59,109 bases of DNA from a virus. Taxonomy: Duplodnaviria > Caudoviricetes. The translations under genes were made by a program, and so were the position numbers. The stretch's first letter is position 1, and each line of letters begins with the position of its first letter. The notes beneath the pieces are model-generated. The model was not told the origin of the DNA, searched no databases, and saw only the letters and a program-made list of their open reading frames with translations. Shown here one piece after another: positions 52,693 to 56,489 of the stretch. The DNA lies in IMG/VR virus record IMGVR_UViG_3300030102_001767, positions 1 through 59,109 of that record; one strand, written 5' to 3'.

Positions 52693-52990
52693 ATTTTTCT
52701 CCTTCTAATTCGTTATTTAATTTTCTTCTAGTTCCACAAGCGATTGCACAATCAACATCAGTAAAATTACGATAATTTAATTCTACAGATGTTTCGTACA
52801 AGCACATCACAAGCAAACTTATTATGTTCACTAATAAGTGTTTTATTTCTTTATTGTTAATGAAGAACTTTCACTCCCATAGTTTCCTCCTTTAAAAAAA
52901 AGAAACTACCCAGTAGTTAAGTAGTAAATAAAAATAATAATTAGAAGATTGACTTTACACTTTTTTTCAGCATAAAAATTTAGCTAAATA

Positions 52991-53052
52991 TGGCATAAAA
53001 AAGGCAGTAGATCGAAATGAAGTTCATAGGCATTGATGCCCTTTTTATGCCA
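52991..53052 (-). ncRNA. stem-enclosed TIGR-like guide unit (unit 3)
   Basis: 16-bp stem with one G-U pair on the minus strand; its 30-nt loop reads TCA-ATGCCTATG-AACTTCA-TTTCGATCT-AC. Confidence 0.55.
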
Positions 53053-53086
53053 AACAAGTTAACTTATTGGGGAAAAAATTAACTTG

Positions 53087-53120
53087 CGTTCTCTAGTTCT
53101 GATGTTCATGTGGATTGACT
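53087..53120 (-). ncRNA. TIGR-like guide unit (unit 2)
   Basis: AGTCA-ATCCACATG-AACATCA-GAACTAGAG-AACG, followed by hairpin CAAGTTAA/TTAACTTG (53055-53086). Confidence 0.6.
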
Positions 53121-53266
53121 TATAACTCGTTGTCTAGTAGCTGCACGCACTCTTGTATTTTTTCTTTTTTATCTCTTTGTTTGTTTGTTTCACTTGAAAT
53201 AAAAATAAAACCTAAAAGAATCAATCCTGCTACATATAATTGTAATTTTTCTTGCCAATTTAACAT
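53120..53266 (-). CDS. 48-aa single-TM protein, not in supplied track
   Basis: AAGGGAG RBS; MLNWQEKLQLYVAGLILLGFIFISSE...DNEL. Confidence 0.65.
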   Translation of the reverse strand: MLNWQEKLQLYVAGLILLGFIFISSETNKQRDKKEKIQECVQLLDNEL

Positions 53267-53280
53267 TTTTTTCTCCCTTT

Positions 53281-53306
53281 TTAAATATATCACTTAATAT
53301 ATTTAA
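53281..53306. promoter_or_regulatory. 26-bp palindromic motif (perfect copy)
   Basis: TTAAATATAT-CACTTA-ATATATTTAA, just before the RBS of 53266. Confidence 0.7.
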
Positions 53307-53309
53307 TTC

Positions 53310-53343
53310 GGTGGTTACTTAAAAGGCACTAAAAGTAACCACC
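53310..53343. terminator. 11-bp stem-loop just downstream of the tasA-like gene (terminator or processing/stability hairpin)
   Basis: GGTGGTTACTT-N12-AAGTAACCACC; no clear U tract. Confidence 0.5.
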
Positions 53344-53357
53344 TACCACTAATTAAC

Positions 53358-54176
53358 TTACTCAATGTCCTCCAAGTTAATAGGTGGTTTAATTAAATTA
53401 GTATTATTAAGTTTAGTTAAAGCATATGGTTCAGGTGGTGTTTTATTAAATTCATATTTAAACCAAACATAATGCAGATGACTTAAAAATAATTTTACTG
53501 TCCAACGCTTTGATATTGCATGAATATGAGCTGGAGGTAGCTCTCCTTTTTTATAATGACTATAAGCTATAGTATTTTTTTGATAATTTTTTTCTTCTAA
53601 TTGTTTTTTTGCATGGTCTTTATAACTTCCAGCATTATTTTTCTTTGTTTCAATTTGTTTTCTTTTAGAGTACAGCTTTCCATAAAAAGCATCTTCATGA
53701 TTACAAACCTTTACAAAACTTTCCCCTATTTTCCAAGCAAGAGTTCTTAATTGACCATTCCAAGGTCTTTTTTCTCCCTTGTTCCATTTTTGATTAGGGT
53801 TAAGACCAGCAAAATTCCATATATGACCAGCAGTAGGTGCTTTGTGTATATCTATATGTGACAACAGACCAGCAGTTATAACGCCACCAACCCCATAATT
53901 TGACATACACCATCTTCCAACTTTGTGAGATTGAGAATATTTAGTTAAGAACTTTTTTATTTCATATTCTAAAGTTTTATCTTGTTCTAATAAATAATTT
54001 AAAGCACTGCACTGTTCTTTAGAGCTAATGGCCTCCCTTAGTTGGTTGGCACTTCTTTTTCTATTTTCTTGTATTTGATAATATCTATCAACCAAAACTC
54101 TTATTTCTGTTTGGTTTAATTCTTTTGCTGTTTGAAGAATATCTCTTTCCATTCTTCTGACTGGTGTCATTTCCAT
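53358..54176 (-). CDS. IS110/Nop-domain protein without a nuclease domain; TasA-like TIGR-associated protein
   Basis: Coiled coil YYQIQENRKRSANQL, then WCMSNYGVGGVITAGLLSHIDI...HIWNFAGLNP...WNGQLRTLAW...SKRWTVKLFLSHL, matching the IS110 C-terminal/Nop fold; no N-terminal DEDD RuvC domain; flanked by guide-like units. Confidence 0.75.
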   Translation of the reverse strand: MEMTPVRRMERDILQTAKELNQTEIRVLVDRYYQIQENRKRSANQLREAISSKEQCSALNYLLEQDKTLEYEIKKFLTKYSQSHKVGRWCMSNYGVGGVITAGLLSHIDIHKAPTAGHIWNFAGLNPNQKWNKGEKRPWNGQLRTLAWKIGESFVKVCNHEDAFYGKLYSKRKQIETKKNNAGSYKDHAKKQLEEKNYQKNTIAYSHYKKGELPPAHIHAISKRWTVKLFLSHLHYVWFKYEFNKTPPEPYALTKLNNTNLIKPPINLEDIE

Positions 54177-54195
54177 TTCTCTCTCCCTTTAGAAA

Positions 54196-54230
54196 CGCTC
54201 ATTATTATTGATGTTTATAACTCTTTGGCT
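54196..54230 (-). ncRNA. TIGR-like guide unit (unit 1) in the leader of the tasA-like gene
   Basis: AGCCA-AAGAGTTAT-AAACATCA-ATAATAATG-AGCG, ending 19 nt before the start codon. Confidence 0.6.
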
Positions 54231-54382
54231 TTAAATAATTTTTGATAGACAAATAAGAATTGTAAATAGTGACACTATATCTAATAATTTTTCCATTTTT
54301 TCTCTTCGTGAAGCTACTGTACGAAGATTTATATAAACTTAATAAATTATTTTTCAAATCAATAATCATCATAATCACTATT

Positions 54383-54463
54383 TTAATTTAAAATACTAGC
54401 CGTTGCCTCTAATGATATGTAGGTTACATAAAAACCTAATAACAAAAGAACAAAGACTAGCAT
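54383..54463 (-). CDS. 26-aa hydrophobic peptide
   Basis: AGGGAG RBS; MLVFVLLLLGFYVTYISLEATASILN. Confidence 0.5.
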   Translation of the reverse strand: MLVFVLLLLGFYVTYISLEATASILN

Positions 54464-54489: not shown

Positions 54490-54834
54490 CTAAAACGGAA
54501 TCTCATCGTCAATGAGAGCTTCTTCTTTCTTTGGTGGAGATTGCTCTGGATAATCTGTAGCTGGACTCGATATTCCTGGTGGTGCTACCTCAACACTAAT
54601 ATAAAAATATTTTATTCCTTCTTGACCATCTTTAGGTTTAGATTTTCTATCCCACATTGCAATTTTAATTTCAGCTTGTTCTAAATTATTAGACTTAGCT
54701 AAATCAATCATTGCCTTGATTTGTTTTTTATTTATTTCTACTTGACCAACAAAATCTGGTTTTTTTGGTGTATCTTTGTATTTGTTTGGGAAAGCCGCAC
54801 CTTCGGACTTTAGTTCTATATCATAATTAGCCAT
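54490..54834 (-). CDS. putative single-stranded DNA-binding protein
   Basis: KKPDFVG...IAMW core and acidic C-terminal DDEIPF tail. Confidence 0.7.
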   Translation of the reverse strand: MANYDIELKSEGAAFPNKYKDTPKKPDFVGQVEINKKQIKAMIDLAKSNNLEQAEIKIAMWDRKSKPKDGQEGIKYFYISVEVAPPGISSPATDYPEQSPPKKEEALIDDEIPF

Positions 54835-55738
54835 TGTTTATTTCTCCTTTTCTAGCTTTTAAATTTGATAACATTTTTTTATAAGTTTCTATGTCTACAT
54901 CTTGCATTCGTTGAAATTGTTCTTTGTTGTTTTTAAATATGTCATTTAACTCTTCAACAGTTTTACAAGTTTCTGCCCAGACCTTTACTAAATCAGAAAA
55001 TGCTTCAGCTTGTTCTTTAGTCGTAATGTCTGTATCTTTTACAGAAACTTCTGGATTATGAATAGCACCTTCAGAATTACTATTTAAAAGTTCTGTAACC
55101 TCCTCAACCTCTTTAACCTCTGCATCATTACTAAAATGTGTATCGGTTTGTTTACTTTCTGTAATTACTTCTACTTCTACAGTATTTTTTGATTCTTCTT
55201 CTGGAAAATCTTCGGCTTCTTCTTTCGTAATTAAACCTTTTAAAGAATCAGGAAAGGCATCTCTAAGAGCAAAACCTCTGGCTCTCATTTGCAACATTCT
55301 ATCTGGGTAACTTTTCCAAGGCCCTCTGTTAGTAAGACCAGCTCTTGTAGCATCTGACCAAGCAAATTCTCTTATAGTTTTTTCTATTTCATTAGTAGCC
55401 TTAACTAATCTTTTTACTGTGCAAACAGCTTTTCTTTCATTTCCAGACCCAACAATTTGCTCCTCAATACCAGCAAAATCTGGGTTTACTCTGCATAAAG
55501 CAATAGCACTATCTCCGTATAAAGATGGTTTTCCATTTATCACGGCAATATTTTGTAAAGCCTGGATTGGTTTTAAACCAACCTCATGACCCATTTGTAT
55601 ACATATTAATATGTCTGCTGGCTTTCCTTTGTAATTTACTGGAACAAAATCACTTTTAGATACTAATTCTGAAAATTCTTTTGCCTCGTTAAAGTTTGAT
55701 GGTGTCATACCATCCATTTTTTGTAATTCATTAGTCAT
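54827..55738 (-). CDS. RecT/Red-beta-like ssDNA annealing protein
   Basis: QMGHEVGLKPIQALQNIAVINGKPSLYGD...PWKSYPDRMLQMRARGFALRDAFPD. Confidence 0.85.
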   Translation of the reverse strand: MTNELQKMDGMTPSNFNEAKEFSELVSKSDFVPVNYKGKPADILICIQMGHEVGLKPIQALQNIAVINGKPSLYGDSAIALCRVNPDFAGIEEQIVGSGNERKAVCTVKRLVKATNEIEKTIREFAWSDATRAGLTNRGPWKSYPDRMLQMRARGFALRDAFPDSLKGLITKEEAEDFPEEESKNTVEVEVITESKQTDTHFSNDAEVKEVEEVTELLNSNSEGAIHNPEVSVKDTDITTKEQAEAFSDLVKVWAETCKTVEELNDIFKNNKEQFQRMQDVDIETYKKMLSNLKARKGEINNG

Positions 55739-56489
55739 TTACTCTCTCCTTATATTGTTCACAAAAACTATTTACATTACACCATTGCTCACACCTCGTA
55801 GCTATTCCTTTTGGAGATAGCCATACTTCCTCATCTGAACAAACAAATTTTTGAGGGTCTTTTACAGCTTCTTCGTGTAATTTAATTCTTTCTACTATAA
55901 AATTTTGTATTTCATCTTCACTCCAGTTTTCAATAGGTTTAATCATAACTGGTGAAGGTGGATAAGTATTACTGTTAGTTGCTCTCCCTTTGCTCCAGTC
56001 TTTTAATATAGCAATAATTCTAGCATCTGGTATAGGGGTATCTTTATATAATTTTGAATACATCCATCTATATATATTAAGTTGATGTGTCCAATCTGGT
56101 TTATCGTAATTTACTGCATAAGCATTAGTTGTTTTGTAGTCGCTTAAAATATTATCAGTAATACTATAATGATCGACTGTTCCAGAGATTAAAAAAGATT
56201 TTCCGTCAATTTTTAAAGAAACTTCCATTCTTTCTTCTGTTTTACAATCATCATGTATTTTATTTGCATTTTCTATTACTTGATGAACAGCAGTACCAAT
56301 AAAAGTAGCAATAGAATCAGAATAATCTTCAGTTATTTCATTTTTATGAAGCATTTTTAATGCTCTAACTTTCGGTGGTTGTAACAATTCTGTTACAGAA
56401 TAATCTGCGTCACCTTTTGTATGATTCCATGTGCCTTTGATACCTCTAATTACATCTAAAGGTATCATTTTATTGTTAGTGTGTTCCAC
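55731..56489 (-). CDS. PD-(D/E)XK exonuclease (Cas4/RecB-like)
   Basis: GTAVH, EER, ISGTVD, DYKT and QLNIY motifs; C-terminal Cys cluster. Confidence 0.85.
   Translation of the reverse strand: MEHTNNKMIPLDVIRGIKGTWNHTKGDADYSVTELLQPPKVRALKMLHKNEITEDYSDSIATFIGTAVHQVIENANKIHDDCKTEERMEVSLKIDGKSFLISGTVDHYSITDNILSDYKTTNAYAVNYDKPDWTHQLNIYRWMYSKLYKDTPIPDARIIAILKDWSKGRATNSNTYPPSPVMIKPIENWSEDEIQNFIVERIKLHEEAVKDPQKFVCSDEEVWLSPKGIATRCEQWCNVNSFCEQYKERVND

Follow-up and report, generated by a model that had tools for sequence, protein, structure and literature searches.

A phage TIGR-TasA locus of the dual-repeat clade with a guide array probably collapsed to three separate units

Background

TIGR-Tas systems were described in 2025 (PMC12045711) and, according to the parts of that report covered here, the natural targets and the role of the nuclease-free TasA proteins are open questions in the field. 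In the published arrays, as described there, repeats of 8-12 nucleotides (nt) alternate with 9-nt spacers; the units, most often 5-15 in tandem, lie next to the tas gene, upstream and/or downstream, with the edge truncated at each end, and canonical arrays end in a rho-independent terminator (PMC12045711). We studied a locus of this kind, named tasA, in IMG/VR record IMGVR_UViG_3300030102_001767, a complete virus record of 59109 bases with 33% G+C from a phage described as marine; the whole stretch is called the window below. The locus is likely a TIGR-TasA system of the dual-repeat clade in which the guide array has collapsed to three separate units.

The closest described systems are of two types. 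Dual-repeat TIGR-TasA systems, such as that of Flavonifractor plautii FpTasA, are presented by Faure et al. 2025 (PMC12045711) as phage-encoded solo proteins with coiled-coil and Nop domains, whose guide units consist of edge repeat, 9-nt spacer A, loop repeat and 9-nt spacer B, with box C (CA) before and a UG-type box D after the spacer. The window shares this protein type and unit plan, but its three units are not in tandem, one being upstream and two downstream, where they are split by a hairpin and the last is enclosed by a stem; its units measure 34-35 nt instead of 36, and the processing histidine is replaced. In the stem-loop TIGR systems (Peromyscus-gut PlTasA, BlTasA and CsTasR), the available portions of three reports (PMC12045711, bioRxiv 10.64898/2026.09.09.750476 and 10.64898/2026.08.11.744272) describe a spacer pair between palindromic arms, units at flexible positions around tas, TasA as a binder or repressor, and proteins lacking the Tyr/His processing site. 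The window resembles these systems in the arms around one spacer pair, that of unit 3, the positions of its units, the role that we propose for TasA and the missing His. It departs from them in that the clade of its protein otherwise has dual-repeat arrays, the C-terminal loop is full length and not truncated or absent, a stem encloses a single unit out of the three, and the loop repeat is of the conserved dual-repeat type.

Two more distant systems share parts of the machinery. The TasH protein of Salicola phage CGphi29 (SpTasH; structures 9w03 and 9w04) has a homologous coiled-coil and Nop core with the same processing Tyr, and is 25.6% identical to the tasA product (tblastn; profile expectation value E 1.3e-15) as well as its best fold match, whereas the window protein has no HNH domain and carries Asn at the position of SpTasH His296. 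The IS110/IS621 bridge-RNA recombinases have a Nop-like RNA-binding domain and a two-part guide, as noted in the same 2025 report (PMC12045711); unlike them, the window has neither a DEDD catalytic domain nor element ends, and its scores are below the family cutoffs.

The locus is thus best placed as a variant of known TIGR-Tas and not as a new system, one that lacks the tandem array and the processing His of the dual-repeat class. An earlier interpretation of the window, made from its letters and open reading frames (ORFs) and called here the sequence-only reading, had named it a candidate non-canonical system. The term is too strong, as arrays on either or both sides of tas, sub-arrays and units with stem-loops have already been described in the portions at hand of PMC12045711 and bioRxiv 10.64898/2026.09.09.750476; the same portions mention dispersed positions, sub-arrays and possible intermediates. 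We found no collapsed dual-repeat array and no His loss within the dual-repeat clade in the TIGR-Tas literature covered, the supplementary locus tables and TIGRSafari being outside that scope.

Results and discussion

The tasA product is a Tas protein without a nuclease domain

The tasA product matched the curated NCBIfam equivalog NF052498 (TIGR_Tas_endo, 'TIGR-Tas system RNA-guided endonuclease') with 190.1 bits (E 4.9e-56, cutoff 100), in an alignment spanning positions 1-214 of the 215 of the model and residues 25-238 of the 272 of the protein. An alignment of the protein with 25 relatives (26 sequences, named A1) was used for profile searches, for an AlphaFold2 model and for the scan of viral contigs (see below). 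Against PDB, the A1 profile matched a TasR chain (9mty_A, E 2.4e-20), TasH chains (E 1.3e-15) and the IS621 recombinase (E 4.1e-5). The predicted structure was all-helical, with helices along residues 5-254, a mean pLDDT of 89.4 and a pTM of 0.86; in a Foldseek comparison with PDB, TasH/TasR complexes occupied ranks 1-10 (TMq 0.57-0.66) and were followed by IS110-type recombinases (TMq ~0.43). The curated model, the profile matches to TasR and TasH and the predicted fold indicate that the product is a genuine Tas protein. No RuvC, HNH or DEDD domain match was found in the 272 residues with Pfam, NCBIfam or the fold, and there is no room for a nuclease; the protein is therefore assigned to the TasA subtype, which agrees with the sequence-only reading of a TasA-type, coiled-coil and Nop ORF devoid of RuvC and HNH. 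The family is large: of 2862 candidates, 2470 proteins reached an E of 0.001 or better.

The gene could also be read as the remnant of an IS110-family transposase accompanied by fragments of a bridge RNA. Its product has weak similarity to Pfam Transposase_20 (17.1 bits), to the IS110 NCBIfam model (28.4 bits) and to IS621 (E 4e-5), and in PHROGs it belongs to phrog_4285, labelled 'transposase' (E 3.1e-44). The first two scores are however under the curated cutoffs of 21.3 and 140, respectively, and no other Pfam family matched; DEDD and RuvC domains are missing, the Tas model scores far higher, Tas structures reach a TMq of 0.6 against 0.43 for IS621, and the relatives carry TIGR arrays, not insertion sequence (IS) ends. 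We ruled out this candidate by the Tas model score, the fold ranking and the arrays of the relatives, and give it a negligible probability. This agrees with the sequence-only reading, which took the gene to be unlikely to encode an active transposase.

Three TIGR units flank tasA

Three units are found at the locus on the strand of tasA (Table 1), each ordered as edge, spacer A, loop repeat, spacer B and edge, and in which every spacer is preceded by box C and followed by box D. The sequence-only reading had placed three same-strand units here, and they read exactly as it gave them. R1, a model based on sequence alone, was derived from 25 array units of the viral loci L002, L003 and L005 (see below), with zero units from the window, and run unfiltered over all 59109 bases on both strands. 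It gave 68 matches at E up to 10. Ranks 1, 2 and 3 fell at 53087-53122, 53010-53037 and 54198-54223, all on the minus strand, and rank 4 had an E of 0.31. As R1 ranks the three units on top, the three-unit observation is beyond chance. The composite pattern YCA, 9 nt, (A)AACWTCA, 9 nt, A has 3 occurrences in both strands of the window, all at the tasA locus, a count that is circular because the pattern was derived from the same three sites; the bare 7-mer AACWTCA occurs 38 times in the window. As foreseen by the sequence-only reading, repeat finders miss these units: Tandem Repeats Finder reported no tandem array in the window, and a periodicity scan of the window gave no stretch of at least 3 units with a period of 30-41.

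Table 1 Features of the tasA locus, its surroundings and the related arrays
Feature	Position	Strand	Evidence or description
Unit 1, upstream solo TIGR unit	54196..54230	-	R1 rank 3, E 0.05
Unit 2, first downstream TIGR unit	53087..53120	-	R1 rank 1, E 0.0026
Unit 3, last TIGR unit	53005..53038	-	R1 rank 2, E 0.0073
tasA, 272 amino acids (aa), coiled-coil and Nop	53358..54176	-	ORF, profile, fold
Hairpin 1, stem of 12 base pairs (bp)	53054..53087	-	Between units 2 and 3; two pairs with double changes
16-bp stem, arms 52991-53006 and 53037-53052	52991..53052	-	30-nt loop almost exactly unit 3
Arrays sharing spacer pairs	L002:3915-4297, L003:3575-3823, L005:3835-4119
57-aa ORF, one hydrophobic stretch	53120..53293	-	Between tasA and unit 2; without Pfam family
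21-aa hydrophobic ORF	54231..54296	-	Own ribosome-binding site, directly upstream of unit 1
Short hairpin, then T run	52894..52918	-	Inferred end of the tasA-guide transcript
RecT-family protein	Within 54490-56489	-	29.6 bits, cutoff 24
114-aa protein with acidic DDEIPF tail	Within 54490-56489	-	No family match
252-aa protein	Within 54490-56489	-	Without Pfam match

Relatives carry tandem arrays or the same reduced layout

The scan of viral contigs with A1 yielded 80 loci kept of 437 confirmed, and a single-protein query matched none. At least 3 units with a period of 34-38 nt were detected beside tas in 74 of the 80 viral loci. Among the six loci with no periodicity match, the flanks of L004, L010 and L072 are truncated and inspection by eye showed a short array in L055 and an irregular one in L034, with L078 ambiguous. 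The closest relatives carry arrays of 6-48 units. In L002, a 57.7-kb contig whose Tas is 72% identical to that of the window, a canonical dual-repeat array is located 0.6 kb downstream of tas and has 11 units with a period of 34 nt (9-nt edge repeat, 9-nt spacer A, 7-nt loop repeat AACATCA and 9-nt spacer B); 7 units each were counted in L003 and L005 with the L002-type pattern. The G+C-rich locus L069 (Tas 48% identical) has 21 units upstream of tas, at L069:1734-2480. Its loop repeat is unchanged, its edge repeat is 10 nt long and its spacers 8 nt, and the array reaches to about 25 nt from the tas start. The three units of the window are homologous to the tandem-array units of these canonical dual-repeat relatives.

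A metagenome scan added four loci, L082-L085, with Tas proteins 88-89% identical to that of the window; the L082 and L083 genes are identical. L082, L083 and L084 have the layout of the window, i.e., unit 1, tasA, small ORF, unit 2, hairpin and stem-enclosed unit 3, and L085, which ends inside tas, has unit 1. Comparison of the window with L082 and L084 gave a nonsynonymous-to-synonymous ratio (dN/dS) of 0.095-0.105 for tas at a synonymous divergence (pS) of 0.41-0.42, a substitution pattern that shows purifying selection on the tasA locus. The non-coding cassette from unit 2 to the stem end (129 columns) has 116 columns identical with L082 and 110 with L084, so that it is about four times better conserved than synonymous sites over equal divergence. 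The reduced layout is a shared, selected state of the subclade.

The sequence-only reading described the guides as scattered singly on both sides of the gene. They are indeed not in tandem, but units 2 and 3 are what is left of a single downstream array and not free-standing guides. Unit 2 begins at the stop codon of the 57-aa ORF and its 3' edge is truncated.

Unit 1 sits between the stop codon of the 21-aa ORF and the tasA ribosome-binding site, and occurs in every one of the 10 loci whose Tas reaches 54% identity (the window, L002-L005, L010 and L082-L085). Across them its 5' edge and spacer A are near-invariant and its 3' edge is conserved, the start of spacer B being variable. As a single full unit should, it starts and finishes with the two halves of the 10-nt edge repeat found in the L069 array. 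It directly precedes the tasA ribosome-binding site in the window, L002 and L082-L085, and in L003, L004, L005 and L010 a promoter-like stretch (TTGACA and TATA, read by eye) separates it from tas. Unit 1 might be a cis-acting TasA binding site in the tasA mRNA leader (in the window, L002 and L082-L085) that serves autoregulation, as suggested by its place 19 nt before the tasA start codon, just ahead of the ribosome-binding site, and by the little variation that it shows, restricted to the first bases of a spacer B of 6-8 nt. The promoter-like stretch, on the other hand, leaves unit 1 outside the leader in L003, L004, L005 and L010, and its termini match the L069 edge-repeat halves like those of a normal processed unit. 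We consider a leader site unlikely, and it would be compatible with guides at units 2 and 3.

Unit 3 is enclosed by a conserved stem

RNAalifold was run on three sequences, those of the window, L082 and L084, and predicted 37 pairs, in 3 of which both partners have changed with pairing preserved. Between units 2 and 3 lies hairpin 1, and beyond it a 16-bp stem closes around unit 3 (Table 1). In the 16-bp stem, 0 pairs are broken in the three sequences, one pair has a double change, and three pairs have single changes to or from G-U. The G-U pairs form on the tasA strand only, and so does the one produced by a strain variant at 52996 (run X7), so the stem is kept at the RNA level on the tasA strand. 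The window cassette sequence folds by itself with a z of -3.7 relative to shuffles, whereas the upstream region 54177-54400 gave no fold better than shuffles (z +1.57). An enclosing stem is seen for unit 3 only; units 1 and 2 have none.

The stems could instead be an ordinary terminator or attenuator at the array end, unit 3 merely lying in the loop and only the linear units, if any, acting as guides. Canonical arrays end in such a terminator according to the part of the 2025 report covered (PMC12045711), clear GC-rich terminators directly follow the last unit in L003 and L005, and the G+C-rich inner part of the stem is flanked by an A run and a T run. A loop of 30 nt is nevertheless far outside the terminator range, and a scan with loops of 3-8 did not list the stem; pairing also persists in the outer 6 bp beyond the A and T runs, through a double change in one of them, and the spacers in the loop are conserved and common to L002. 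Given these features we regard a plain terminator as improbable, and continue to treat unit 3 as a putative stem-enclosed guide.

The processing histidine is replaced in the window

In SpTasH, pre-tigRNA is cut by residues Y289 and H296, according to the consulted part of PMC13421893. In the A1 profile alignment they correspond to Y251 and position 258 of the window protein. The Tyr is present, and codon 258 (53403-53405) encodes Asn. Position 258 is His in 79 of 82 locus-encoded Tas proteins, the exceptions being the window (Asn) and L082 and L083 (both Tyr), and in 118 of 121 sequences formed by the best 120 cluster representatives and the window, the exceptions being the window, P0001 and P0079. 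The codon reads AAT in the window, TAC in L082 and CAT in L084. A contig of run X10, 98.5% identical to the window (12 differences in 823 bases), has G for T at 53405, which restores CAT (His). The C-terminal loop is of full length, as in the dual-repeat relatives, and only its residues 257-260 are changed, including position 258 and a neighbouring His. The His has thus been lost twice, recently, and only in the collapsed-array subclade (P0079 aside). This loss fits a relaxed need for self-processing.

Spacers are inherited and constrained

The spacer pair of unit 3 also occurs in unit 2 of the L002 array, the L082 copy being identical to it and the window copy differing at 2 of 18 positions. 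One spacer pair is common to the arrays of L002, L003 and L005 (Table 1) with 1-3 changes, at different array positions, which suggests that the guide sets of this phage group are fixed. Among the 88%-identical relatives, 1-4 of 18 positions differ in the spacers of units 2 and 3, and the only variants in strain contigs are at the second base of unit 2 spacer B and at the first base of unit 1 spacer B. From these comparisons the spacers are inherited and constrained, and whole-array content differs between the window, L002, L003 and L005.

According to the sequence-only reading, 9-mers as conserved as the repeats across related loci would speak against guides. Such conservation was observed among the 88% relatives, but not against L002, L003 and L005, where array content turns over. 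We do not accept the conserved 9-mers as a refutation, since array content turns over and guides against constant targets are expected to be conserved.

Spacer A of unit 2 also matches one L002 spacer over 8 nt in reverse complement, which is within chance after counting the comparisons made.

Proposed mechanism

A single transcript would start upstream of the 21-aa ORF and run through unit 1, tasA, the 57-aa ORF, unit 2, hairpin 1 and the stem-enclosed unit 3. By analogy with described systems, a TasA dimer would bind each dual-spacer RNA of ~34-35 nt, spacer A pairing with one DNA strand and spacer B with the neighbouring stretch of the opposite one. The target site would consist of spacer A and, after it, the reverse complement of spacer B, because the first paired guide base is reported to lie at the outer unwinding junction. 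TasA would then bind without cutting and may block transcription or replication at the site; other TasA proteins act as RNA-guided repressors, as reported in the portion covered of bioRxiv 10.64898/2026.09.09.750476. Since the spacers are conserved between phages, the targets would be fixed host or competing-element sites and not newly acquired ones. Release of the guides probably depends less on the Tyr/His ribonuclease site of TasA and more on the flanking structure and host ribonucleases, and the catalytic His would be dispensable in the subclade.

A broader reading, which we offer tentatively and hold as possible but less probable than not, is that the subclade represents a natural intermediate between two TIGR architectures, in which the array has collapsed, one unit is stem-enclosed, the self-processing site is dispensable and maturation passes to host ribonucleases. 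The three guides would form a hard-wired regulatory set directed at constant sites of the host or of rival elements, and not an adaptive repertoire.

Several observations weigh against the main reading, a TIGR-TasA system with a collapsed array. On the protein side, the His loss is recent and polymorphic, His being kept in L084 and X10, so it may be a slightly harmful variant. The Tyr column (residue 251) is Phe in 14 of 83 locus-encoded proteins and in 22 of 121 representatives, most of them with arrays; the Tyr/His dyad model of SpTasH may thus not be exactly transferable and, if the Tyr is catalytic in SpTasH, the Phe-bearing TasA proteins may process differently. As to the units, the 3' box D of unit 2 is CG and not UG (one L002 edge has CG likewise), and spacer B of unit 1 is short, 8 nt in the window and 6-8 nt in relatives. 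The structure evidence comes from 3 sequences of about 3 lineages. The promoter and terminator of the transcript are inferred from conservation alone, and the consensus scans were at chance level: the promoter scan gave 9 promoter-like sites against 9.6 expected and supported no transcript boundary, and the terminator scan (loops 3-8) gave two terminator-like sites, both inside tasA on the other strand. Among the listed sequencing runs that contain the tasA locus, 0 are RNA runs.

Target searches count on the same side. Self-targets of the three units were sought in both strands of the window as spacer A plus the reverse complement of spacer B and in the opposite order, with gaps of 0-2, 100 shuffles per unit and wrong-orientation controls; the best sites had 3-4 mismatches out of 18, as did those of the shuffles. 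Self-targeting of the phage, being no better than shuffles or wrong-orientation controls, was set aside as uninformative. Exact searches for the 18-nt unit 3 composite, in which two positions were degenerate, gave 5 matches in viral contigs, with unrelated flanks and a GC of 0.37-0.56, and at least 120 matches in genome contigs over unrelated taxa, both at chance level.

These results have to be weighed also with regard to decay of the locus, i.e., that the array has been deleted, the units and stems are non-functional, and TasA is being lost or is kept for a guide-independent role. The missing tandem array, the catalytic His gone in two lineages, the truncated 3' edge of unit 2 with CG for UG and the failure of the self-genome and composite scans to give a target all agree with it. 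Decay does not account for a tas dN/dS of ~0.1 at a pS of 0.42, a cassette ~90% identical, pairing preserved by compensatory changes, and the persistence of all three units in every subclade member seen (the window, L082/L083 and L084) and of unit 1 in L085. We therefore see little probability in a decaying remnant, and retain the collapsed dual-repeat system as the likely reading.

With three conserved and selected guides in a complete 59-kb phage, the target search is far smaller than with arrays of 10-48 guides, and comes down to three composite sites to be sought once the host is known. The presence of linear and stem-enclosed units beside a dual-repeat TasA, together with the rare His loss, bears on both TasA targets and guide maturation. 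Array finders based on tandem periodicity would call such loci array-less.

Genome setting

The tasA gene is placed within the early replication and recombination region of the phage genome, which also encodes the RecT-family protein of Table 1, a primase-helicase and, on the opposite strand, a C5 DNA methylase. All the matches of the primase-helicase are distant (cyanophage and Flavobacterium phages, at most 29% identity), and for that reason no host was inferred. The gene group upstream of the tasA operon (Table 1) resembles a recombination module; its 114-aa protein is presumably SSB (single-stranded DNA-binding protein)-like.

The 21-codon ORF is kept in L002-L005, L010 and L082-L085, with one invariant Cys and mostly conservative changes as read from the sequences, and counterparts of the 57-aa ORF are present in L002, L005, L082 and L084. 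An A/T-rich palindrome (53281-53306) is located immediately before the ribosome-binding site of the 57-aa ORF. An 11-bp hairpin on the minus strand (53310-53343), 15 nt past the tasA stop codon and with no T run after it, is absent from L082 and L084; its stem is kept in L002 with a different loop.

The hairpin with a T run at the inferred transcript end is conserved in L002 and L082; the consensus scan did not flag it. Between it and unit 3, about 20 nt at 52943-52963 (minus strand) are near-identical in the window, L002, L003, L005, L082 and L084. This stretch starts like the 5' edge of unit 2, and its opposite strand contains TTGACT or TTGACA with an A/T-rich hexamer 17 nt further on; either an antisense promoter or an additional, degenerate unit could be present here.

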